Below are positions 4,511 through 44,968 of a DNA stretch of 64,000 bases, one piece after another. Both the position numbers and the translations under genes were made by a program. Source of the DNA: Escherichia coli. Its GTDB lineage: Bacteria; Pseudomonadota; Gammaproteobacteria; Enterobacterales; Enterobacteriaceae. Where the stretch lies: the NCBI RefSeq assembly GCF_050920415.1, contig NZ_CP169309.1; one strand, written 5' to 3'. The notes beneath the pieces are model-generated. The model had not been told where the DNA came from. It saw only the letters and a program-made list of their open reading frames with translations, and ran no database searches. Each line of letters begins with the position of its first letter. Position 1 is the first letter of the stretch.

Positions 4511-5341
4511 TTACGCGGAGCGAGACGCTGTCGCCCCTGCGCGCGGCGGCAGAGCAAATGCCACCAGCGCCGGGATGAGATAAATAAACCAGACGGCGAC
4601 TTCGCTGACGCTCGGCGCTTCCTGATAACCAAAGATACCTTCCATCAGCGTACCGAACAGCGAGTGAGTTGAGAGCACCGCGCTCATATCGAAGGCGATT
4701 TCCTGAAAGTGGTTCCACAGCCCGGCTTCATGAAACGCGCGAATAGCACCAGCAGCCAGCCCTGCGGCGACGAAGAGAATAAACAGGCTGGTCCATTTAA
4801 AAAACGCGCCAAGATTGAGGCGAATACCGCCCCAGTAGAGCAGGAAGCCGAGCACCACGGCTGTAGCAAGACCGAGCATTGCACCCAGCGGAGGCCAGAT
4901 ACCGACATCTTGTTGAAACGCCGCCAGCAGGAAAAAGACCGACTCCAGTCCTTCCCTTGCAACGGCAAAAAAGACCATCATCACCAGCGCCCAGCCATGA
5001 TGATTCCCACGCTGCAATGCGCTATCGACTGCCTGTTCCAGTTGCACTTTGACGTTGCGCGACACTTTACGCATCCAGAAAACCATCCAGGTGAGGATCA
5101 CCACGGCAATCACCGCCACGATACCTTCGAACAATTCCTGCTCTTTTTGCGGAAATTCGCCGGTAGTTTCATTAATGAATATACCCAGCCCCAGGCACAA
5201 CGCAGCGGCTAGCAACACGCCAATCCACATGACACCAATCCATCGACCTCGCTGGGTACGCTTAAGATAGCTGGCAATCAGGCTGACAATCAGCGCGGCT
5301 TCAAGTCCTTCGCGCAACATAATGAGAAACGGAACAAACAT
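4511..5341 (-). CDS. efeU: EfeU, ferrous iron permease (FTR1 family), apparently intact
   Basis: continuous 276-codon frame from MFVPFLIMLREGLEAAL; REGLE motifs present; no frameshift visible (K-12 carries a frameshifted copy). Confidence 0.88.
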   Translation of the reverse strand: MFVPFLIMLREGLEAALIVSLIASYLKRTQRGRWIGVMWIGVLLAAALCLGLGIFINETTGEFPQKEQELFEGIVAVIAVVILTWMVFWMRKVSRNVKVQLEQAVDSALQRGNHHGWALVMMVFFAVAREGLESVFFLLAAFQQDVGIWPPLGAMLGLATAVVLGFLLYWGGIRLNLGAFFKWTSLFILFVAAGLAAGAIRAFHEAGLWNHFQEIAFDMSAVLSTHSLFGTLMEGIFGYQEAPSVSEVAVWFIYLIPALVAFALPPRAGATASRSA

Positions 5342-19545: not shown

Positions 19546-19888
19546 TCGATTATTCATTGACCAACGTCTCATGCCCTGTTATTACTGTGAGATATTCAAT
19601 CACGTTATCAAATAAAAAAATCGATATCATTGCGGTAAGCTTGTTATTGATTATAAATATGGGTAATAAGCGATATCCAGCATGAATTTGATTGTACAGA
19701 GTATTTCCTATATAGCCATTGGTTAAATCTTGAAGATAAGATACCTCCGGCTGAAAAATCCATCCCGGCAATGAAGGATGTGATATTTTCGTAATTCTCT
19801 TGCAGAATAAACAACCCTGGATACGCTCTGAATACAAGGAAATTTTCCAATAAATTATTTATTCATCAATACTCCCCGGCGAGGATCA

Positions 19889-20407
19889 TCAAAATATCTC
19901 ATTATCTTTTAAAACTGCCCAGCCCGTTATAACGGACGTTATCTGGCGCACGCTGAAGTGGGCATGATACTCACTTTCATTAAAATGCTCGACATGATTT
20001 GCTAATCGCTTAGCTAGATAATTGACGTTCAGTCTGTGCCAAATTTTTAGCGAAAAATAGCAAATTTCAAGCCGGGAATTTATCAAAGCATCCTCATTTA
20101 CTTCACCATGAACAATAAAGTCACGCATAAACTGCAGGTGTTTAATTAATAAAATCCATTCACTTTCAGTAAGATAGTTTTTCCCACGCAGATTATAATA
20201 CAGAGATTTGATTAATGGGATCTTCTGCTTATGGCGCTTTGACCGCGCTGAGCACAATATTTGTTCTATCAGGCCAAGCGTCCCTTTCTGACGCAACCAG
20301 CACCGGAGTTCAGACTGCGCGCTAATGCCGCGAGCCACCGACAAATGTATTTGGGTAAGCAATGCGTATAAACCTAATAAAAACGCGTCGTGATAATACC
20401 GCTTCAT
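19889..20407 (-). CDS. hypothetical protein (172 aa), second gene of the AT-rich insert between yccJ and agp
   Basis: ATG at 20407 with good RBS (aaggtggg, 5-6 nt spacing); lies 12 bp downstream of the preceding ORF stop; visibly AT-rich; no homolog recognised; C-terminal RLANHVEH resembles an R-x(4-6)-H motif. Confidence 0.6.
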   Translation of the reverse strand: MKRYYHDAFLLGLYALLTQIHLSVARGISAQSELRCWLRQKGTLGLIEQILCSARSKRHKQKIPLIKSLYYNLRGKNYLTESEWILLIKHLQFMRDFIVHGEVNEDALINSRLEICYFSLKIWHRLNVNYLAKRLANHVEHFNESEYHAHFSVRQITSVITGWAVLKDNEIF

Positions 20408-20419
20408 TACCCACCTTTG

Positions 20420-20788
20420 TTATCGTAATTTTTTAAACAAATAATCATATAAAATTTCGGCAATGAATTCTGCATGTTCACGTCGCACAATGACATTCAT
20501 AACGTAATATTGCGCAGCAATTTCATTGATAAAATGTTCAGGCAGTATGAATACGCGTGCATAAGCCGAGTATATTTCCAGTATTTCATTTGAGATGTTT
20601 TCAAGATCAACGCAATAATTTGTCACATCATAAAAAAGATTAGCGTATTTTTTATTAATTATGCTAAGGCATATAAATGGGGCATTTAATTTTTCACACA
20701 ATTGCCAGTGCGTTCTTTCATTTTCTCCCTTCCATGTATACTTCATTTTGTCAGCCATCCTTTGATTTACGCGTCTGAAGTTTACCAC
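20420..20788 (-). CDS. hypothetical protein (108-122 aa), first gene of the AT-rich insert
   Basis: maximal ORF begins at a GTG (20788); ATG candidates at 20758 and 20746 (MKYTWKGENERTHW, weak AGGA about 11 nt upstream); no homolog recognised. Confidence 0.5.
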   Translation of the reverse strand: MVNFRRVNQRMADKMKYTWKGENERTHWQLCEKLNAPFICLSIINKKYANLFYDVTNYCVDLENISNEILEIYSAYARVFILPEHFINEIAAQYYVMNVIVRREHAEFIAEILYDYLFKKLR

Positions 20789-20893
20789 TGTGTCTGGGGT
20801 AAACCATGCGTTCTATGGTAAAAATTATACGAGATGTGGCGCTGCGTAATATTCTGCTCCCTCAATATATTTCTGGTGAATATGTTCCAGGTT

Positions 20894-20926
20894 AATTGGG
20901 AAGATCTGCATGTGATCTTCCCAATT
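20894..20926. other. perfect 13-bp inverted repeat hairpin at the agp-proximal edge of the insert
   Basis: aattgggaagatc-tgcatgt-gatcttcccaatt; followed by a T-rich stretch on the plus strand only. Confidence 0.6.
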
Positions 20927-20955
20927 TTATGACTACAAAATGTCAATAGCCGGGT

Positions 20956-22197
20956 TTATTTCACCGCTTCATTCAACACGCTATCAAACTTATCCATTGG
21001 GCAGAAACCATCAGCGTCTATCGGGCAGCCGGTTAATTCCAGCGTCACGCGCTGAGCCGGAGCCTGCAACGTTAACGCATCAGCATTACGCAACTGTTCC
21101 GCACTCTGGTACACATATTCAATTTTCATCAAATCGCGATTAGCTTTGCTGTCATGCCAACGCTGGAAAACGATTTTGCCGCCAATCGGCGTGCGTTCGT
21201 TCTGGTCATGCAACTGATACGGTTTGAAATCCAGTGCCGTTAACAGAGAGGCAATGTTTGAGTCGTGCCCCACCAGCACCGTGATTTTCGGTGCACTAGT
21301 TCGATCGGTGACCAGTGCTTTGTCGATATAACTGACCAGCGGTTTCGCAACATTGCGCGCCACTTCCGGTGAGGTAAACAGGCTATCCTGGTAGCCGTTT
21401 TTCAGCTTCGACAATACTTTCCACTGTTGGTCAGTTTTGATCTCTCCCCACGCCACCTGATCCATCGGGAAACCTTCGTAGTATTGCAAAGTAAACGCAT
21501 CTACCAGCGAGTTGCCGACTTTCAGCGGCCCGGAAACGCCCGGTTCTTGTTGATACTTCGCGCTAAAGGTGTTTTTGCCATCTACAAGCGAACACTGTTG
21601 CTTCTCTTTACAGGCAGGAGAATCTTTATAGTTAACGATTTTTTCCAGTAGCTTGTAGCTGTCGGTAAGCTGGAGTTTGCCGAGCTCTTTCTCCATTGCC
21701 GCCACCGCCTGTTCACTGAATGCGGCGGAATCATCGGTGATCACCGGGTTAAAGGTTGGGTCCATGGTGCCCATTTTTTCCTGGTGATGAACAGGAATAT
21801 CACACCCGGGGAATGCGCCGGTAATAAAGAACTGCGCGGTCGCGACGGTGCGTTGCAGACTATTGGCATAGGCATAAACGGTGTCCGGCGGCGGGCATTC
21901 ACCCGATTTCACCATCCCCTGCTCTGCCAGCCATTCACGCATGTAATGGCCCATATACACTTCGAGTACTCCCCCTTTAGTGGTGAGCTGCCCACCGGGA
22001 ACGTCCCATTCTGGCCATTTATTCGGCGTCGACTGCTCCAGCACACTGCCATTGTTCGCCAGCGGCGCACGTAAGTTATGGCGGCTCATCATGAGCACTT
22101 GCTGCAACTGATAGCCTTCCGGTACGGTTTGTGCCTGAGCATTTGAAGCGAGTAAAACTATCCCTGCCACAGCTGCGGCGATTAGCGTTTTGTTCAT
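20956..22197 (-). CDS. agp: Agp, periplasmic glucose-1-phosphatase (histidine acid phosphatase)
   Basis: 413-aa frame from [22 protein letters not shown]; RHNLRAP active-site motif; matches recalled Agp. Confidence 0.95.
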
Positions 22198-22488
22198 TCC
22201 TGGCACCTCTTTTGTTATCAATCACCAAAGAGTGTGACAGAAATATGACATTTTTCCGGGAACAGGTTCGCAAAATGGCTTGTTGAGTGCCTGTTTTTCT
22301 ATATTTGTCATTAAAAAAAGGCAAGATTTGACGCAACCTATACATGATTGGCCCCTGCCTCGTGTACGCCGTTGATGATTTCACCATGGGCTAGACAGAA
22401 TATCACCGACGTTATCGATACAGGGGCAATATTTACTAAAAAGAGAATGTGAGACTAATAAAAACTATTTTAGCACATGTCTTTATCA

Positions 22489-23742
22489 TTAAATGGCATA
22501 ACGATTTAAATAGTCCAGTTGCGCTTTCATTTCCTTATGGTTTAACTGGTATGACTGAGCAAAAAGTTCAGTAGGGAGGTAAACGTCATAATGATTGCCA
22601 GTATTCATTAAATAACCATACTCAAGATCTTCATCCGTTGAAAAGGATTCACTTCCCAAGGAGATTGATCCCACATTACAGGCAACAATAAACAATGAAC
22701 AAATGCTATCTGAAAGCACAGCAAGGAAATTCTTCACCGCTTTAACCTTTTCCGGAGAGTCGGTATTTAAAACAAGCGAACCCTTGTTATCATTAAATAT
22801 AAACTCGGGTAAATGCAATATGCATCTTTCGTCATTCAAGCAACTACCAATGAATTCTTTTTTAAACTTAATAAAATTCGACGCTAAAGAATTACCCATA
22901 TCCTGAATTTGGTTGTCAGAATGCAGATCAACGCCAAATAATGTCTTAATCTCTTCCCTGAGATTAAAGAATGCTGCATCAACAAAAGACTCAATCACTT
23001 GTTTATCAACAATTTTAATAAATTCGTCGTATACTTCTTTTTGCGTCTTTTGACTGCCAAGCGCCCATGAATAATCAACGTGTTTTATAACCAGTATGGC
23101 TCTTAACAGACAATATCCATCGCCATCTACAGGCGCGTATTTTAATTTATGTGCTTGATTAATTTCACTCTGAATAAAAGATATACCAGACAAATCAATA
23201 CCAGTAACTGAATCATATATTCCCGGCGTATTTATCCGTTTTGGCTGGACACTCGTAATTTCATCATCATCAAAGCAATACTCAGAAAAAACATCATTAC
23301 ACTCATTTAAGATATCAACATATGCTATAAATTTATACCAACAGCTACTTTTAAAGCCTGCAATAGCCTGTGAAAACATACCCGGCAAGGATATATTAAC
23401 AAGCTCTCTTTCTTGAAAATATTGTATAGTATAGGTAATGCCTCCTGAATCCCCTGAATAAGTGTTTGTATCATGAGTACGTAATGTTTTCATAAATGAA
23501 GATAAATCATTATCATTTTGCATTTCCTCTAATTCTGTTTCTAGTGATTCACACACCAGGCATGAAATATTTTCTTCTTTCCGCATGATTTCATTGTACA
23601 ACCGCATAAAACACTCTAGTTTTTGTTCAAAAAGCGTGATTGAACATTTTTGATTTTCTTCGCGCCTGGTTTTTATATCGGCCCAGGCTGTTTTCAAATA
23701 ATTATTAGCACTGCAACTTACTCCATGTATATTACTACCCAT
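22489..23742 (-). CDS. yccE: YccE-like uncharacterized protein
   Basis: 417-aa AT-rich ORF between agp and cbpA, the position of yccE in K-12; identity rests on position and size only. Confidence 0.7.
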   Translation of the reverse strand: MGSNIHGVSCSANNYLKTAWADIKTRREENQKCSITLFEQKLECFMRLYNEIMRKEENISCLVCESLETELEEMQNDNDLSSFMKTLRTHDTNTYSGDSGGITYTIQYFQERELVNISLPGMFSQAIAGFKSSCWYKFIAYVDILNECNDVFSEYCFDDDEITSVQPKRINTPGIYDSVTGIDLSGISFIQSEINQAHKLKYAPVDGDGYCLLRAILVIKHVDYSWALGSQKTQKEVYDEFIKIVDKQVIESFVDAAFFNLREEIKTLFGVDLHSDNQIQDMGNSLASNFIKFKKEFIGSCLNDERCILHLPEFIFNDNKGSLVLNTDSPEKVKAVKNFLAVLSDSICSLFIVACNVGSISLGSESFSTDEDLEYGYLMNTGNHYDVYLPTELFAQSYQLNHKEMKAQLDYLNRYAI

Positions 23743-23999
23743 ATATAGCGCCTATAAAATTTAATAAATAATGACGTCCTAGTTAAGCTTAAAATGCCTG
23801 ATTTAACTATCAAAAATCGCTCACCCTTTTACCTGTTTAAACTATGCTCAGCAATCCATCTTGACGCCACCTCCTCTCCACGATGATTTCAATAACATAT
23901 TCTGTGTTGGCATATGAAATTTTGAGGATTACCCTACACTTATAGGAGTTACCTTACAGGGGTTCCTTCAATTTGTGTTGATTTACGCGAGATAACGCT

Positions 24000-24920
24000 A
24001 TGGAACTAAAGGATTATTACGCCATCATGGGCGTGAAACCGACGGACGATCTCAAGACAATCAAGACCGCCTATCGTCGACTGGCCCGCAAATACCATCC
24101 AGACGTCAGCAAAGAACCGGATGCCGAAGCCCGCTTCAAAGAGGTCGCTGAAGCCTGGGAAGTGTTAAGTGATGAACAACGTCGCGCTGAGTATGATCAG
24201 ATGTGGCAACATCGCAACGATCCGCAATTTAACCGTCAATTCCATCATGACGACGGTCAGAGTTTTAACGCCGAAGATTTTGACGATATCTTCTCGTCAA
24301 TTTTCGGTCAGCATGCCCGCCAGAGCCGTCAACGCCCCGCCACACGCGGCCACGATATTGAAATCGAAGTGGCGGTATTCCTCGAAGAAACGCTTACTGA
24401 GCATAAGCGTACCATCAGCTATAACCTGCCGGTTTATAACGCCTTTGGCATGATCGAACAGGAAATCCCGAAAACGCTGAATGTGAAGATCCCGGCGGGC
24501 GTCGGCAATGGTCAACGCATCCGCCTGAAAGGCCAGGGAACGCCGGGCGAAAATGGCGGCCCAAATGGCGATTTGTGGCTGGTGATTCATATTGCGCCGC
24601 ATCCATTGTTTGATATTGTCGGCCAGGATCTGGAAATAGTGGTGCCGGTTAGCCCGTGGGAAGCGGCGCTGGGTGCTAAAGTCACCGTTCCAACACTGAA
24701 AGAAAGCATTTTGCTAACTATCCCGCCGGGCAGTCAGGCCGGGCAACGATTACGCGTTAAAGGCAAAGGCCTGGTGAGCAAAAAACAGACCGGCGATCTG
24801 TATGCGGTACTGAAAATCGTGATGCCGCCGAAACCGGATGAAAATACGGCCGCGCTGTGGCAGCAACTGGCAGACGCCCAGTCGTCTTTTGATCCACGTA
24901 AAGATTGGGGGAAAGCATGA
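24000..24920 (+). CDS. cbpA: CbpA, curved-DNA-binding DnaJ-like co-chaperone
   Basis: 306-aa ORF with J-domain (YYAIMGV...HPD); matches recalled CbpA. Confidence 0.95.
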
Positions 24921-35928: not shown

Positions 35929-36101
35929 GGTCAGTGCGTATTTGCAGCGCGACGTTATCAAAGGTGATCATCGTCGATTTACAAAAAATACACTTTGCCC
36001 CTAAAGGATTTCGCTCCGTCACATCGAATGCCGATGTGCGGTACTGTGAACCATGACAACATGGACAGCGGAAATGGAGATGTTGAGTAATAACGGCAAC
36101 C

Positions 36102-36314
36102 TTAGAGCGTAACAACGTTCGCTGCCGCGGGACCACGTTGCCCCTGCTCAATAGAAAATTCAACTTTCTGATTTTCGTTCAGCGTGCGGAATTCATTGCT
36201 CTGGATGGCGGTGAAATGGACGAAAACGTCTTTGCTGCCATCATCAGGAGTGATAAAGCCAAAACCTTTATCTGCGTTAAACCATTTTACTAAACCAGTC
36301 ATTTTATTAGACAT
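36102..36314 (-). CDS. cspG: CspG, cold shock protein
   Basis: 70-aa [24 protein letters not shown]... with CSD RNP motifs. Confidence 0.95.
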
Positions 36315-36599
36315 ATTTTACTTCCTTCATTTTGGGCCTTTCGGCAAACAGGGCTTTAATACAGAAACTACTTAGTGTTCAGGAGAGAGACTCAAAAGAA
36401 GGGGATAATGCCTGATAATGAGAACTGCTTTAGTAAACTACTTTGTATGCTGTCTGTCTTTCAAACCGACGCAGCTATTAACGCATGATAATTGAGATTA
36501 AGCAATTTTTATTTTAGCCGTCCGGCGGTCTTAAATATCGCTGGCTTTATTTTATTAACCCCGTATAGTGCAGCGCAGTATTTTCAGTAAGGAATTTGT

Positions 36600-36812
36600 T
36601 TGTCCCGTAAAATGACAGGAATTGTCAAAACCTTTGATCGCAAAAGCGGCAAAGGATTCATTATCCCCTCCGACGGTCGTAAAGAAGTCCAGGTCCATAT
36701 TTCCGCATTCACTCCCCGCGACGCAGAAGTGCTTATACCAGGATTACGCGTGGAATTTTGCCGCGTAAATGGCCTACGCGGACCAACAGCGGCAAATGTT
36801 TATCTCTCTTAA
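36600..36812 (+). CDS. cspH: CspH, cold shock-like protein
   Basis: 70-aa CSD protein; begins with TTG at 36600 (internal ATG at 36612); RBS aaggaa. Confidence 0.85.
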
Positions 36813-37253
36813 GATGACGCAGCTTGTTTAAAGCTGGCTGTTTTTATTAAAAAAGCTCAATAGTCAACATCGCACATTATAACAAAAGTTACTTTCACCC
36901 CAGAAAACAAATCCATTTAGCCGAATATCTCTGCACCTAATAGTTATAAATGCTACTTAACAGTCAATCATAGTACCGCTTGAAACTATATCACCAACAA
37001 TAGTTAATAGCTTTCTTAACAATTTTCTTATCTTTAATTTGTATTTTTCTAAGATTTATCTTATGCTCACAAGTCGTATTTCCAGAGGGAAATCGTTAAC
37101 AATCTTATATTTCTCTCTGCGCGCCTTTCCCACTCGCGGTATATAGTACCGACGGTATGCGGAAAGGGAGATTTCACAAGGATGTTATACTCAAAGTAGA
37201 CAATCCTGATCTCAAGCGTACGTATTGTCCATGCGATGAATAAAGGAAAAGTT

Positions 37254-37559
37254 ATGAAACACAAGCTTTCTGCAATCCTTATGGCCTTCATGTTGACGAC
37301 GCCAGCTGCGTTTGCTGCACCAGAAGCAGCAAACGGGACCGAGGCAACGACGGGTACTACTGGCACCACAACGACCACTACTGGTGCCACTACGACTGCT
37401 GCTACCACCGGTGGCGTAGCTGCTGGCGCTGTCGGCACGGCGACGGTTGTCGGTGTGGCAACGGCTGTTGGTGTGGCGACTTTGGCAGTAGTTGCAGCAA
37501 ATGACAGTGGCGATGGCGGTTCTCATAACACCTCAACCACCACGTCCACTACGCGCTAA
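37254..37559 (+). CDS. gfcA: GfcA, threonine-rich small protein of group 4 capsule operon
   Basis: 101-aa frame from MKHKLSAILMAFMLTTPAAFA with a long Thr/Gly/Ala low-complexity tract. Confidence 0.88.
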   Translation: MKHKLSAILMAFMLTTPAAFAAPEAANGTEATTGTTGTTTTTTGATTTAATTGGVAAGAVGTATVVGVATAVGVATLAVVAANDSGDGGSHNTSTTTSTTR

Positions 37560-37665
37560 TACTGCTTTAACGCGTCAAAATTAAAGTTAAATGATACCCG
37601 GTTGCGATATTCGTACCGGGCTTTAGAGATTTGCATTTTTTTAATTAACCTTTCAAGGATTAAAG

Positions 37666-38310
37666 GTGCGCCCTCTTATTTTATCGATTTTCGCACTATT
37701 TCTTGCGGGATGTACACACAGCCAGCAAAGTATGGTCGATACATTTCGCGCCAGCCTTTTCGATAATCAGGATATCACCGTAGCGGATCAGCAGATCCAG
37801 GCGTTGCCTTATTCCACGATGTATTTACGCCTTAATGAAGGGCAACGAATCTTTGTGGTACTGGGATATATAGAACAAGAACAAAGCAAATGGTTATCCC
37901 AGGATAACGCCATGCTGGTTACCCACAATGGACGTCTTTTAAAAACCGTCAAACTTAATAATAATCTGCTGGAAGTGACAAATTCCGGGCAGGACCCTCT
38001 GCGTAACGCGCTGGCAATAAAAGACGGCAGCCGCTGGACGCGCGATATTCTCTGGAGTGAAGACAATCATTTTCGCTCTGCGACCCTGAGTTCCACTTTT
38101 TCCTTTGCTGGATTAGAGACGCTGAATATTGCGGGTCGCGATGTGCTGTGTAATGTCTGGCAGGAAGAGGTGACTTCCACGCTGCCAGAAAAACAGTGGC
38201 AAAACACATTCTGGGTCGATTCGGCTACTGGCCAGGTTCGTCAAAGTCGGCAAATGTTAGGCGCAGGGGTTATTCCCGTAGAAATGACGTTTCTTAAACC
38301 CGCACCATGA
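37666..38310 (+). CDS. gfcB: GfcB lipoprotein
   Basis: 214-aa ORF with lipobox LFLAGC. Confidence 0.9.
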   Translation: MRPLILSIFALFLAGCTHSQQSMVDTFRASLFDNQDITVADQQIQALPYSTMYLRLNEGQRIFVVLGYIEQEQSKWLSQDNAMLVTHNGRLLKTVKLNNNLLEVTNSGQDPLRNALAIKDGSRWTRDILWSEDNHFRSATLSSTFSFAGLETLNIAGRDVLCNVWQEEVTSTLPEKQWQNTFWVDSATGQVRQSRQMLGAGVIPVEMTFLKPAP

Positions 38311-39053
38311 ATAAATTACAGTCGTATTTCATTGCCAGCGTACTTTACGTAATGACACCCCATGCCTTTGCGCAAGGAACGGTGACTATTTATCTGCCTG
38401 GCGAACAACAGCCCCTTTCCGTTGGCCCCGTGGAGAATGTTGTCCAGTTGGTGACACAACCGCAACTGCGCGATCGCCTCTGGTGGCCTGGAGTCTTGCT
38501 GACCGACTCCGCGGCGAAAGCTAAAGCGCTTAAAGACTACCAACATGTCATGGCACAGCTTGCTTCCTGGGAAGCAGAAGCTGACGACGATGTGGCGGCA
38601 ACGATTAAATCCGTGCGCCAGCAGTTACTCAATCTCAATATCACTGGTCGCTTACCGGTCAAACTGGACCCTGATTTTGTACGAGTGGATGAGAACAGCA
38701 ATCCCCCGCTGGTCGGGGACTATACGCTCTATACCGTACAGCGCCCAGTGACTATTACTCTGCTGGGTGCGGTTACTGGGGCTGGGCAATTGCCCTGGCA
38801 GGCAGGCCGTAGCGTTACCGATTATCTGCAAGATACCCCCCGTCTTGCAGGCGCGGACAAGAATAACGTTATGGTGATTACGCCTGAGGGTGAGACTGTC
38901 GTCGCCCCTGTTGCCCTGTGGAATAAAAGACATGTGGAACCACCGCCTGGCAGCCAGCTTTGGTTGGGCTTTTCTGCGCATGTACTGCCCGAAAAATATG
39001 CTGATTTAAATGACCAGATTGTGTCTGTTTTAACGCAACGTGTTCCTGACTGA
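38307..39053 (+). CDS. gfcC: GfcC, periplasmic capsule assembly protein
   Basis: 248-aa ORF with signal peptide, overlapping gfcB stop. Confidence 0.9.
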
Positions 39054-41149
39054 TGAAGAAGAACTCTTATCTTTTAAGCTGCCTGGCCATTGCCGTCTCC
39101 AGTGCCTGTCATGCTGAAGTATTAACCTACCCGGATCCGCTGGGGTCGTCGCAATCAGACTTTGGCGGCACAGGATTGTTGCAGATGCCAAATGCGCGCA
39201 TCGCACCGGAAGGTGAATTCAGCGTCAACTACCGGGATAACGATCAATACCGTTTCTACTCCACGTCCGTGGCGCTGTTCCCATGGCTGGAAGGCACCAT
39301 TCGTTATACGGATGTGCGCACGCGCAAATATAGCCAGTGGGAAGATTTCAGCGGCGATCAGTCATACAAAGACAAATCTTTCGATTTTAAACTTCGCCTG
39401 TGGGAAGAAGGTTACTGGCTACCGCAAGTGGCGTTTGGTAAACGTGATATTGCTGGTACGGGTCTGTTTGACGGTGAATATTTGGTGGCCAGCAAGCAAG
39501 CGGGGCCATTTGATTTCACCCTCGGGATGGCGTGGGGCTACGCCGGTAATGCGGGCAATATTACCAACCCGTTTTGCCGGGTGAGCGATAAATATTGTCA
39601 TCGCGCAGAGTCTCACGATGCGGGAGATATCAGCTTTAGCGATATCTTTCGTGGCCCGGCTTCCATCTTTGGCGGCATTGAGTATCAAACGCCGTGGAAT
39701 CCCCTGCGTCTGAAACTCGAATACGATGGCAACAATTACCAGAATGATTTTGCGGGCAAATTGCCGCAGGCAAGCCATTTCAATTTCGGTGCTGTGTATC
39801 GTGCTGCCAGCTGGGCAGATCTTAACCTTAGCTACGAGCGCGGTAACACATTGATGTTTGGCTTCACGTTACGGACCAATTTCAACGATCTGCGCCCTGC
39901 CCTGCGCGATACGCCAAAACCGGCATATCAACCTGCGCCGGAATCTGAAGGATTGCAGTACACCACAGTAGCGAACCAACTTACCGCGCTGAAGTACAAC
40001 GCAGGTTTTGAAGCACCGGAAATTCAGCTGCGCGATAAGACGCTGTATATGTCTGGTCAACAATACAAATACCGTGATTCTCGCGAAGCGGTCGATCGTG
40101 CCAACCGGATTCTGGTGAATAACCTGCCGCAAGGCGTTGAGAAGATTAGCGTGACGCAAAAGCGCGAGCATATGGCGATGGTGACGACCGAAACCGACGT
40201 AGCCAGCCTGCGCAAACAGCTCGCCGGTACCGCGCCTGGTAAAGCAGAGCCACTGCAACAACAACGTGTTGAAGTAGAAGATCTTTCTGCCTTTGGTCGG
40301 GGCTACCGTATTCGTGAAGATCGCTTTAGCTATTCTTTCAACCCAACACTTTCGCAGTCGCTGGGCGGTCCGGAAGATTTTTATATGTTCCAGTTGGGGC
40401 TGATGTCCAGTGCCCGCTACTGGTTTACCGACCACCTGCTGCTTGATGGCGGTATTTTCACCAATATTTACAACAACTACGACAAGTTTAAGTCTTCGCT
40501 GTTACCCGCGGACTCTACCTTGCCCCGCGTGCGCACGCATATCCGTGATTACGTTCGCAATGACGTTTATCTCAACAACTTACAGGCGAACTATTTTGCC
40601 GACTTAGGCAACGGTTTCTATGGCCAGGTGTACGGCGGTTATCTGGAAACGATGTATGCCGGTGTTGGTTCCGAGCTGCTTTATCGCCCGCTCGATGCCA
40701 GCTGGGCGCTGGGGGTGGACGTTAACTACGTGAAGCAGCGTGACTGGGACAACATGATGCGCTTCACCGATTATTCCACGCCAACAGGTTTCGTGACGGC
40801 TTACTGGAACCCGCCGACGCTCAATGGCGTACTGATGAAACTCAGCGTTGGGCAATATCTGGCAAAAGATAAAGGGGCAACCATCGACGTCGCCAAACGC
40901 TTTGACAGCGGTGTGGCAGTAGGAGTATGGGCGGCAATCAGTAACGTATCTAAAGATGACTACGGCGAAGGCGGCTTTAGTAAAGGGTTTTATATCTCGA
41001 TTCCGTTTGACTTGATGACCATTGGACCTAACCGCAACCGCGCGGTGGTTTCGTGGACACCATTGACGCGTGATGGTGGACAAATGCTGTCACGCAAATA
41101 CCAGCTCTATCCAATGACGGCAGAGCGAGAAGTACCGGTTGGACAATAA
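39053..41149 (+). CDS. gfcD: GfcD, outer-membrane beta-barrel lipoprotein
   Basis: 698-aa ORF, start overlapping gfcC stop. Confidence 0.9.
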
Positions 41150-41194: not shown

Positions 41195-42334
41195 ATGAAA
41201 AAGAACATTTTTAAGTTTTCGGTACTGACATTGGCTGTTCTGTCTTTGACAGCATGTACCCTTGTTCCTGGTCAGAATTTATCGACCAGTAACAAGGATG
41301 TCATTGAACTACCTGACAATCAGTATGACCTGAACAAAATGGTCAATATCTATCCCGTCACGCCAGGATTGATTGATCAGCTGCGCGCCAAACCGATTAT
41401 GTCGCAGGCTAACCCGGAGCTGGAGCAACAAATCGCGAACTATGAATATCGCATCGGCATTGGCGATGTGTTGATGGTGACGGTCTGGGATCACCCGGAA
41501 CTAACCACACCCGCAGGGCAATATCGTAGCGCCAGTGATACTGGCAACTGGGTTAACGCTGATGGTGCAATTTTCTACCCTTATATTGGTCGCCTGAAAG
41601 TGGCCGGGAAAACGCTTACCCAAGTACGCAACGAGATTACAGCGCGTCTGGACTCAGTCATTGAAAGCCCGCAAGTCGATGTCAGCGTCGCGGCGTTCCG
41701 ATCGCAAAAAGCGTACGTCACCGGCGAAGTCAGCAAATCGGGTCAGCAGCCGATTACCAATATTCCTCTGACCATCATGGATGCGATTAACGCCGCGGGC
41801 GGTCTGACCGCAGATGCAGACTGGCGCAACGTGGTGCTCACCCAGAATGGCGTAAAGACCAAAGTGAACCTCTATGCGCTGATGCAGCGTGGCGACTTGC
41901 GCCAGAACAAACTGCTGCACCCGGGCGATATTTTATTTATTCCGCGCAACGATGATCTGAAAGTCTTCGTGATGGGTGAAGTGGGTAAACAGAGCACGCT
42001 GAAAATGGACCGCAGCGGTATGACCCTGGCGGAAGCACTGGGTAACGCTGAGGGTATGAATCAAGATGTCGCTGATGCGACGGGGATTTTTGTTATTCGT
42101 GCAACGCAAAACAAGCAGAATGGCAAAATCGCCAATATTTATCAGCTGAATGCGAAGGACGCATCGGCAATGATACTCGGAACGGAATTCCAGCTTGAAC
42201 CTTACGACATTGTTTATGTCACTACCGCGCCGCTGGCTCGTTGGAACCGTGTGATTTCTCTGCTGGTACCGACGATTTCCGGGGTGCATGACCTGACAGA
42301 GACTTCACGGTGGATTCAAACATGGCCCAACTAA
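41195..42334 (+). CDS. gfcE: GfcE, Wza-like outer-membrane polysaccharide export protein
   Basis: 379-aa frame from [21 protein letters not shown] (lipobox). Confidence 0.9.
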
Positions 42335-42768
42335 AATTTAACTCAATCCTGGTGGTTTGTACCGGCAACATTTGCCGTTCGCCCATTGGCGAACGCTTGC
42401 TGCGTAAACGTCTGCCAGGCGTAAAAGTCAAATCGGCAGGTGTTCATGGTCTGGTAAAGCACCCTGCAGATGCAACAGCGGCAGATGTTGCCGCTAATCA
42501 TGGCGTATCTCTTGAAGGACATGCCGGACGTAAGCTTACTGCTGAGATGGCACGAAATTACGATCTGATTCTGGCAATGGAGTCGGAACATATTGCTCAG
42601 GTTACGGCAATCGCTCCCGAGGTCCGCGGGAAGACAATGCTGTTTGGGCAATGGCTGGAACAGAAAGAGATCCCTGATCCCTATCGTAAAAGCCAGGACG
42701 CATTTGAACATGTTTACGGCATGTTGGAGCGCGCCAGTCAGGAATGGGCGAAGCGCCTTAGCCGGTAA
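42322..42768 (+). CDS. etp: Etp, low-molecular-weight protein tyrosine phosphatase
   Basis: 148-aa frame from [21 protein letters not shown] (CX5R P-loop). Confidence 0.92.
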
Positions 42769-42787: not shown

Positions 42788-44968
42788 ATGACAACTAAAA
42801 ATATGAATACGCCACCAGGCAGCACTCAGGAGAATGAGATCGATCTGCTTCGTCTGGTCGGCGAGTTATGGGATCACCGTAAGTTTATTATCAGCGTGAC
42901 TGCGTTATTCACGCTGATCGCTGTCGCTTACTCGCTGTTAAGCACGCCAATTTATCAGGCAGATACTCTGGTCCAGGTTGAGCAGAAACAGGGCAACGCC
43001 ATTCTCAGCGGCCTGAGCGATATGATCCCTAACTCATCGCCCGAGTCAGCACCGGAGATCCAACTGCTGCAATCGCGCATGATTCTCGGTAAAACCATTG
43101 CTGAACTGAATCTGCGCGACATAGTTGAGCAAAAGTATTTTCCGATTGTGGGTCGCGGCTGGGCGAGATTAACCAAAGAGAAACCAGGTGAGCTGGCGAT
43201 CAGTTGGATGCACATTCCACAACTGAATGGCCAGGATCAACAACTGACACTCACAGTTGGGGAAAACGGCCACTATACGCTGGAAGGTGAAGGGTTCACC
43301 GTCAATGGTATGGTCGGCCAGCGTCTGGAAAAAGACGGCGTTGCTCTGACTATCGCGGACATTAAGGCCAAACCAGGAACGCAGTTTGTCCTGAGCCAGC
43401 GTACCGAACTGGAAGCGATTAACGCGTTGCAGGAAACCTTTACCGTTAGCGAACGCAGTAAAGAAAGCGGGATGCTGGAACTTACCATGACCGGTGATGA
43501 TCCCCAGTTGATTACTCGTATTCTGAACAGCATCGCTAACAACTATTTGCAACAGAATATCGCTCGCCAGGCGGCGCAGGATTCACAAAGCCTTGAATTC
43601 TTACAGCGCCAGTTGCCAGAAGTGCGCAGCGAGCTGGACCAGGCGGAAGAAAAACTCAACGTTTATCGCCAGCAGCGCGATTCGGTTGACCTTAACCTGG
43701 AAGCCAAAGCCGTTCTTGAGCAGATTGTTAACGTTGATAATCAACTCAATGAGCTGACCTTCCGCGAGGCCGAGATCTCCCAGCTGTATAAGAAAGATCA
43801 CCCAACTTATCGTGCGCTGCTGGAAAAACGCCAGACGCTGGAGCAAGAACGCAAACGCCTGAATAAGCGGGTATCGGCAATGCCTTCCACTCAACAGGAA
43901 GTATTGCGTTTAAGCCGTGACGTAGAAGCGGGCCGTGCGGTATATCTGCAATTACTTAACCGCCAGCAGGAGTTGAGTATTTCGAAATCCAGTGCGATTG
44001 GTAACGTGCGGATTATCGACCCGGCAGTCACTCAGCCGCAGCCAGTAAAACCGAAAAAAGCGTTGAATGTGGTGCTTGGTTTTATTCTTGGCCTGTTTAT
44101 TTCGGTGGGTGCCGTGCTGGCGCGTGCGATGTTGCGTCGTGGTGTAGAAGCACCGGAACAACTGGAAGAGCACGGCATCAGCGTTTATGCCACTATCCCG
44201 ATGTCCGAGTGGCTGGATAAGCGTACCCGTCTGCGTAAGAAAAATTTATTTTCTAATCAGCAGCGCCATCGTACTAAAAATATCCCCTTCCTGGCGGTGG
44301 ATAACCCGGCGGATTCTGCTGTGGAAGCCGTACGTGCGCTACGAACCAGTCTGCACTTCGCTATGATGGAGACAGAGAATAACATTCTGATGATCACCGG
44401 TGCGACGCCAGACAGTGGTAAAACGTTCGTCAGTTCAACTCTGGCGGCGGTGATCGCCCAGTCCGATCAAAAAGTGTTATTTATTGATGCTGACTTACGT
44501 CGTGGTTATTCGCATAACCTGTTTACCGTGAGTAATGAACATGGCTTGTCGGAATATCTGGCAGGGAAAGATGAGCTCAACAAAGTGATCCAGCATTTTG
44601 GCAAAGGAGGCTTTGATGTGATTACTCGCGGTCAGGTGCCACCTAACCCGTCTGAACTGCTGATGCGCGATCGGATGCGTCAATTACTGGAATGGGCGAA
44701 CGACCATTACGATCTGGTGATTGTCGATACGCCGCCGATGCTGGCGGTGAGCGATGCTGCGGTCGTGGGGCGCTCTGTCGGCACCAGCCTGCTGGTTGCG
44801 CGTTTTGGCTTGAACACCGCCAAAGAGGTGAGCTTGTCAATGCAGCGTCTGGAACAGGCTGGCGTTAATATTAAAGGCGCAATCCTCAATGGTGTGATTA
44901 AACGCGCCAGCACCGCTTACAGTTATGGCTATAACTATTACGGTTATAGTTACTCCGAGAAAGAGTAA
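42788..44968 (+). CDS. etk: Etk, Wzc-like BY-kinase (tyrosine autokinase)
   Basis: 726-aa ORF; Walker A GATPDSGKT; C-terminal Tyr cluster YSYGYNYYGYSY. Confidence 0.93.
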   Translation: MTTKNMNTPPGSTQENEIDLLRLVGELWDHRKFIISVTALFTLIAVAYSLLSTPIYQADTLVQVEQKQGNAILSGLSDMIPNSSPESAPEIQLLQSRMILGKTIAELNLRDIVEQKYFPIVGRGWARLTKEKPGELAISWMHIPQLNGQDQQLTLTVGENGHYTLEGEGFTVNGMVGQRLEKDGVALTIADIKAKPGTQFVLSQRTELEAINALQETFTVSERSKESGMLELTMTGDDPQLITRILNSIANNYLQQNIARQAAQDSQSLEFLQRQLPEVRSELDQAEEKLNVYRQQRDSVDLNLEAKAVLEQIVNVDNQLNELTFREAEISQLYKKDHPTYRALLEKRQTLEQERKRLNKRVSAMPSTQQEVLRLSRDVEAGRAVYLQLLNRQQELSISKSSAIGNVRIIDPAVTQPQPVKPKKALNVVLGFILGLFISVGAVLARAMLRRGVEAPEQLEEHGISVYATIPMSEWLDKRTRLRKKNLFSNQQRHRTKNIPFLAVDNPADSAVEAVRALRTSLHFAMMETENNILMITGATPDSGKTFVSSTLAAVIAQSDQKVLFIDADLRRGYSHNLFTVSNEHGLSEYLAGKDELNKVIQHFGKGGFDVITRGQVPPNPSELLMRDRMRQLLEWANDHYDLVIVDTPPMLAVSDAAVVGRSVGTSLLVARFGLNTAKEVSLSMQRLEQAGVNIKGAILNGVIKRASTAYSYGYNYYGYSYSEKE

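Follow-up and report, generated by a model that had tools for sequence, protein, structure and literature searches.

The gfc locus and its genes

The window analysed here, a single stretch of 64,000 nt of Escherichia coli DNA, has seven co-oriented genes between cspH and appA, the latter read from the other strand. The arrangement is seen in the ORF map and in the RefSeq annotation for the near-identical genome of E. coli MFDS1022581, in which 6 of the 64,000 positions differ. It is this placement, flanked by cspH and appA, that marks the locus as gfc. The genes (gfcABCDE-etp-etk) and the other features discussed below are listed in Table 1.

Table 1. Features of the cspH-gfc region, and two reading frames of an insertion elsewhere in the window
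Feature	Position	Strand	Description and basis
Hypothetical ORF, 172 aa	19889-20407	-	In 1.4-kb insertion; annotation of near-identical genome
Hypothetical ORF, 108 aa	20420-20746	-	In 1.4-kb insertion; annotation of near-identical genome
cspH	36600-36812	+	Cold shock-like protein, TTG start, 70 aa; NCBIfam NF012008 CspH equivalog, 176 bits (cut-off 141)
cspH-gfcA spacer	36813-37253		441 bp, 35.6% G+C, uninterrupted, without IS1
Terminator-like hairpin and T-run after cspH	36820-36846	+	CAGCTTGTTTAAAGCTG then GCTGTTTTTA; consensus terminator scan
Candidate extended -10 element	37183-37191	+	TGtTATACT; read from the sequence, invariant in 7 sequences, prediction
Invariant leader upstream of gfcA	37202-37253	+	100% identical in 7 of 7 aligned sequences, including E. 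albertii
Empty IS1 target	37221-37229		CGTATTGTC, single copy in window; 24 bp to gfcA ATG
Shine-Dalgarno-like AAGGA	37243-37247	+	6 nt before gfcA ATG; sequence
gfcA	37254-37559	+	Threonine-rich inner membrane protein, 101 aa; 99/101 identical to K-12; RefSeq annotation of near-identical genome
gfcB	37666-38310	+	Lipoprotein, 214 aa, lipobox LAGC; PF11102 YjbF, E = 4e-69; 212/214 identical to K-12
gfcC	38307-39053	+	248 aa; PF20616 and PF06251 (GfcC_N/GfcC_C); 244/248 identical to K-12
gfcD	39053-41149	+	YjbH-family outer membrane protein, 698 aa; PF06082, E = 4e-270; 692/698 identical to K-12
gfcE	41195-42334	+	Wza-like polysaccharide export lipoprotein, 379 aa; NCBIfam NF011658, 702 bits; 378/379 identical to K-12
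etp	42322-42768	+	LMW-PTP; NCBIfam NF008486 equivalog, 334 bits; 100% identical to K-12
etk	42788-44968	+	BY-kinase, 726 aa; NCBIfam NF007350 equivalog, 1594 bits; 725/726 identical to K-12

All seven reading frames have their K-12 length, without internal stops or gaps, and encode proteins 98.0-100% identical to those of K-12. GfcA, for which there is no family model, was identified by its 98% identity to K-12 GfcA; the NF011658, NF008486, and NF007350 scores are all above their cut-offs. GfcB and GfcE have N-termini of the lipoprotein type. Etk has the Walker A lysine (K545) and a C-terminal tyrosine cluster, and Etp the C13-X5-R motif, D119, and Y121; the roles of these residues are as described previously (PMC3366997). 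The operon had been predicted to be intact, and the full-length reading frames, family models, and catalytic motifs all bear this out. Over its length 194 codons differ from K-12, with an amino acid changed in only 16 of them; the seven genes are therefore under purifying selection.

The cspH-gfcA spacer

CspH is 100% identical to its K-12 counterpart. The original prediction, which put a gap of about 440 bp between cspH and gfcA at 36813-37253, had the coordinates right; the measured length is 441 bp. The spacer is AT-rich, particularly over its first 288 bp (31.9% G+C), while the window as a whole has 50.9% G+C.

The original prediction saw no IS1 and no IS-length insertion upstream of gfcA, and every search agreed with this. 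A blastn comparison of the K-12 IS1 copy with the whole 64 kb gave chance matches only, of at most 27 nt; a degenerate pattern for the IS1 inverted repeats, searched with a tolerance of 3 mismatches, had 0 matches across the window; exact IS1 left and right ends, searched for in both orientations, were absent from it; and a tblastn search of the window for insA/insB, with three IS1 ORF products as queries, had a best E of 0.2. The ORF map shows no reading frame of at least 40 aa lying wholly inside 36813-37066. The features that define an IS1 (terminal inverted repeats of ~23 bp, the 768-bp element itself, insA/insB, and a 9-bp duplication) are thus all absent from the window, and neither IS1 ends nor a transposase remnant was found in 36813-37253.

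An alignment with the K-12 region upstream of gfcA breaks only where K-12 holds IS1. With the element removed from K-12, the spacer aligns without indels (450 nt against 450 nt) to K-12, to O157:H7, and to two other E. coli, including an APEC O2 strain. It is then ~92% identical to K-12, and this identity is unevenly spread: ~10% of positions differ in the distal spacer, and the final ~100 bp before gfcA are the same in both. If there are regulators that bind the distal part, their behaviour could differ from that in K-12.

The hairpin just after cspH has a stem that is kept in the E. coli alignment, and would presumably act as a terminator. A repeat search of the spacer gave just short two-copy matches, which were taken as chance, and an Rfam search of 36000-38000 (E up to 10) left the spacer empty. 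A JUMPStart/ops element was considered and rejected: Rfam was negative, and the likeness that CGCGGTAT and GACGGTAT bear by eye to the ops core, GGCGGTAG, fails at the last G and is not conserved in K-12. The only clear hit of that search lies outside the spacer: a cspA-type thermoregulator (RF01766, 157 bits, 36048-36470, minus strand) in the leader of cspG, the neighbour upstream of cspH. There is also a weak, sub-threshold Rfam thermoregulator match before cspH (36493-36663).

The K-12 insertion and its empty target site

The K-12 reference locus aligned with the window comes from a K-12 derivative (L001). Its IS1 (IS1D) is 768 bp long, with ends GGTAATGACTCC... and ...GGCAGCATCACC, and lies after the position equivalent to 37229 of the window, 24 bp upstream of the gfcA ATG, flanked by two copies of the 9-bp direct repeat CGTATTGTC. 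That K-12 carries IS1 at the gfcA promoter, as the original prediction stated, is therefore confirmed by alignment as well as by earlier reports, one of IS1 in the ymc (gfc) promoter of K-12 and not in that of pathogenic strains (PMC2516531), and one placing IS1D in the gfcA promoter region (PMC12428005). This difference between K-12 and pathogens is already published, textbook knowledge.

The K-12 IS1 end adjoining gfcA (L001 2845-2874) has a promoter-like TGGAGA-18-TACACT facing outward to gfcA, so the K-12 operon may not be fully silent; this sequence is listed for gfcA among the RpoD holoenzyme sites found by genomic SELEX (PMC3946193).

How common the uninterrupted state is was estimated by searching 5,426 complete E. 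coli genomes for a 201-bp segment with the insertion point in its middle. Such a query is too short to bridge a 768-bp insertion, and interrupted sites consequently appear as two half-matches. The site is present in 3,615 of the 5,426 genomes and uninterrupted in 3,179 of these, so that ~88% of gfc-positive genomes are IS1-free; this is the majority state of the species. The exact junction between the K-12 flank and IS1 occurs in 401-403 genomes. Among the matches listed, these include ER2796, ER1709, and O16:H48 mouse-gut K-12 isolates, and those sampled are mostly K-12 laboratory derivatives, though a handful are listed as isolates from humans; DH5alpha has a split site. The original prediction treated the absence of IS1 as noteworthy, a view these counts do not sustain. 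In ~1,800 of the 5,426 complete genomes, among them EC958 and other human isolates, the gfc operon is missing altogether and cspH adjoins appA.

The window has CGTATTGTC once, which marks the site as empty and, on this evidence, never occupied by IS1. The empty site is also found in E. albertii and Escherichia sp. MOD1-EC7003; judging from this distribution, it is the ancestral state and the K-12 insertion is lineage-specific. An empty site could also be secondary, left by an IS1 that was excised precisely, but this seems highly improbable here. Nothing in the data specifically supports it, and against it are the one, unscarred copy of CGTATTGTC, the same empty site in O157:H7, the APEC O2 strain, and other E. 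coli as well as in MOD1-EC7003 and E. albertii, and the restriction of IS1 occupancy to ~403 genomes, the sampled ones being mostly K-12 derivatives. We therefore regard the window, with high confidence, as having an ordinary wild-type cspH-gfcA region ahead of a group 4 capsule export operon that is intact, with the K-12 IS1D a lineage-specific insertion at CGTATTGTC and the corresponding site in the window one that was never occupied.

Promoter and leader

Conservation of the spacer was followed in an alignment of seven sequences: five E. coli alleles, Escherichia sp. MOD1-EC7003, and E. albertii. A scan of the genome collection with a degenerate gfcA N-terminal pattern returned only the last two, limiting the footprint to this number. 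Although the E. albertii cspH-to-gfcA region is just 82% identical overall, the fraction of invariant columns rises towards gfcA, from 30-50% in the distal 170 bp to 73-90% at ~37017-37136 and 100% from 37202 to the start codon. Conservation of this order suggests a regulatory role for the leader (37202-37253). A near-invariant stretch from E. coli to E. albertii spans 37197-37262, and the K-12 IS1 target lies inside it.

Just upstream of the leader is a candidate extended -10 element, TGtTATACT; neither TGTTATACT nor the leader downstream shows any variation across the alignment, from E. coli out to E. albertii. A strict sigma-70 consensus scan of the spacer found no plus-strand promoter, there is no convincing -35 element for this candidate, and a literature search on the gfcA transcription start found no mapped start. 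In S. sonnei, however, capsule was restored by a fragment said to carry its own promoter and starting ~293 bp upstream of gfcA (primer CAGCCAGTTATAGTACCACTTG, PMC4368438; its position was mapped by eye onto the E. coli alignment). This supports a location for the native promoter in the spacer's conserved proximal ~220 bp, where TGtTATACT would be the best candidate. Transcription from it would start near 37198 and produce a leader of ~56 nt. With a start at this point, the K-12 IS1 would lie ~30 nt inside the leader, parting promoter from gene.

The leader might also act after transcription. As candidate mechanisms, it could be the target of an sRNA or of CsrA, or an anti-Rho element shielding the C-rich gfcA transcript. 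The sequence ACAAGGATGT at 37176-37185 matches the core of the CsrA SELEX consensus; in Escherichia sp. MOD1-EC7003 its GGA is replaced by GGT. A literature search for gfcA together with CsrA found nothing. The gfcA Shine-Dalgarno sequence can pair with gfcA codons 5-6. RNA folding of 37100-37275 gave no significant structure (z = -1.56, with 14 of 200 shuffles as good), and the changes in this region in MOD1-EC7003 and E. albertii are not compensatory. It seems unlikely that the stretch from ~37197 to the gfcA start is a leader, not described before, which controls the group 4 capsule post-transcriptionally and inside which the K-12 IS1 landed. Strongly conserved across species, the gfc promoter and leader are the one point here that is perhaps worth further work.

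From an intact operon to a capsule

The polymer of a group 4 capsule is the O-antigen, so that a Wzx/Wzy O-antigen cluster, located outside the window, is needed as well as the gfc operon. MFDS1022581 has one, of O2/O50-family type, between galF and gnd; it includes rfbBDAC, wzx, and wzy. RefSeq/PGAP calls two acyltransferase fragments in this cluster (L013 18529-18996) pseudogenes, but the region is one continuous ORF of 155 aa, with a TTG start and hexapeptide-repeat character, and its labelling as pseudogenes is probably an artefact of annotation. Given how little this genome differs from the window, the capsule substrate is probably available in the strain too. It is accordingly plausible, as far as gene content can indicate, that the strain has the genetic capacity to export a Wzx/Wzy-made O-antigen as a group 4 capsule.

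Whether it does so is a different matter. The suggestion that the strain may express a group 4 capsule is plausible as to capacity, in view of the intact operon, but an undisrupted promoter is a weak guide to expression. EHEC has the same active, IS1-free operon, yet its gfcA mRNA is ~30-fold below that of EPEC and no capsule is visible in N-minimal medium (PMC3853201), while in K-12 etk is expressed, with etk-dependent phenotypes, despite IS1 (PMC2516531). Premature Rho termination may be a further control point, since K-12 gfcA RNA reportedly ranks among the best natural Rho substrates, with a strong Rho-dependent terminator zone in gfcA (PMC9160355). The 106-bp spacer between gfcA and gfcB (37560-37665) has a GC-rich inverted repeat, ACCCGGT...ACCGGGC, with no clean T-run after it; taken with the Rho zone, it is a hint that attenuation may take place after gfcA, ahead of the remaining genes.

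Two readings of the locus can be set against each other. In one, the absence of IS1 implies transcription of the operon and, with it, production of a group 4 (O-antigen) capsule by the strain. The intact spacer and seven genes, the O2/O50-type Wzx/Wzy cluster of MFDS1022581, and the precedents of EPEC (PMC3853201) and S. sonnei (PMC4368438), which have IS1-free operons and a capsule, are all in its favour, but the EHEC result goes against it, as do reports of temporal regulation of the capsule (PMC3853201) and of the Rho terminator zone in K-12 gfcA. Moreover, since ~88% of gfc-positive genomes lack IS1 at this site, its absence predicts little. Weighing these, we put production of a capsule at somewhat under an even chance.

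The other reading, which we hold possible but on the doubtful side, is that the operon is near-silent under ordinary conditions, as in EHEC, through H-NS-type silencing or early Rho termination, and that the absence of IS1 is phenotypically neutral. The low G+C content of the spacer, above all of its distal part, relative to the window counts in its favour, as do the low expression in EHEC and the gfcA Rho zone. A search for data on H-NS binding at the spacer found none, however, and the strong purifying selection indicated by only 16 amino acid changes in 194 differing codons of the seven genes, together with a leader invariant across species, argues for use of the operon in some circumstances. 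Whether and when an O-antigen capsule is made would depend on regulation beyond what the sequence reveals.

For annotation, the value of the locus is that the strain very probably carries the genetic capacity for an O-antigen capsule. The strain did not escape an IS1; the element is an oddity of the K-12 laboratory lineage, which makes a poor reference for loci of surface polysaccharides.

Other differences from K-12 and strain identity

The window is ~96% identical to K-12 overall, with several local departures. The efeU gene (4511-5341, minus strand) is an intact ORF according to the annotation of the near-identical genome, and a frameshifted pseudogene in the K-12 derivative, a further K-12 lesion from which the strain is free. 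Between yccJ and agp there is an insertion of 1.4 kb with respect to K-12 (19555-20955); its two hypothetical ORFs (Table 1) had no Pfam or PADLOC matches. A yccE-like region at 22000-24000 is 86-89% identical to K-12, against ~96% elsewhere in the window, and the 417-aa product of an ORF there (22489-23742, minus strand) had no Pfam match. A second insertion relative to K-12, of 2.5 kb (55414-57973), adjoins tRNA-Ser(tga) (55292-55379). Inside it are tRNA-Gly(tcc), tRNA-Arg(tct), and fragments of Ail/Lom and of an integrase; it resembles what is left of an integrated element after decay.

The cspH-to-gfcA allele is rare, found at 99% identity or more in 7 of the 5,426 complete genomes, and several of its spacer variants match the states of E. 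albertii and MOD1-EC7003 rather than those common in E. coli. Both observations point to a less-sampled, early-branching E. coli lineage, which has no bearing on the IS1 question.

Comparison with known systems

Two paralogous systems share families with the operon. In the yjbEFGH exopolysaccharide operon, GfcB, GfcC, and GfcD have their counterparts in the YjbF, GfcC, and YjbH families; in wza-wzb-wzc, GfcE, Etp, and Etk have theirs in the Wza, Wzb, and Wzc families, although Etk and Etp score higher on their own equivalog models, above the cut-offs, than as Wzc and Wzb. The gfc operons (formerly ymcDCBA-yccZ-etp-etk) of EPEC O127:H6, EHEC O157:H7, and Shigella sonnei have the same seven genes as the window, in the same order and the same position between cspH and appA, and match the same family models. 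The differences from them are allelic only, the cspH-to-gfcA stretch (961 bp) being ~93-94% identical to that of most E. coli, and the O157:H7 spacer is IS1-free and colinear, as in the window. The K-12 locus too has the same genes, with 98-100% protein identity, and differs in its IS1D: the 768-bp element and 9-bp duplication are present in K-12 and absent from the window.
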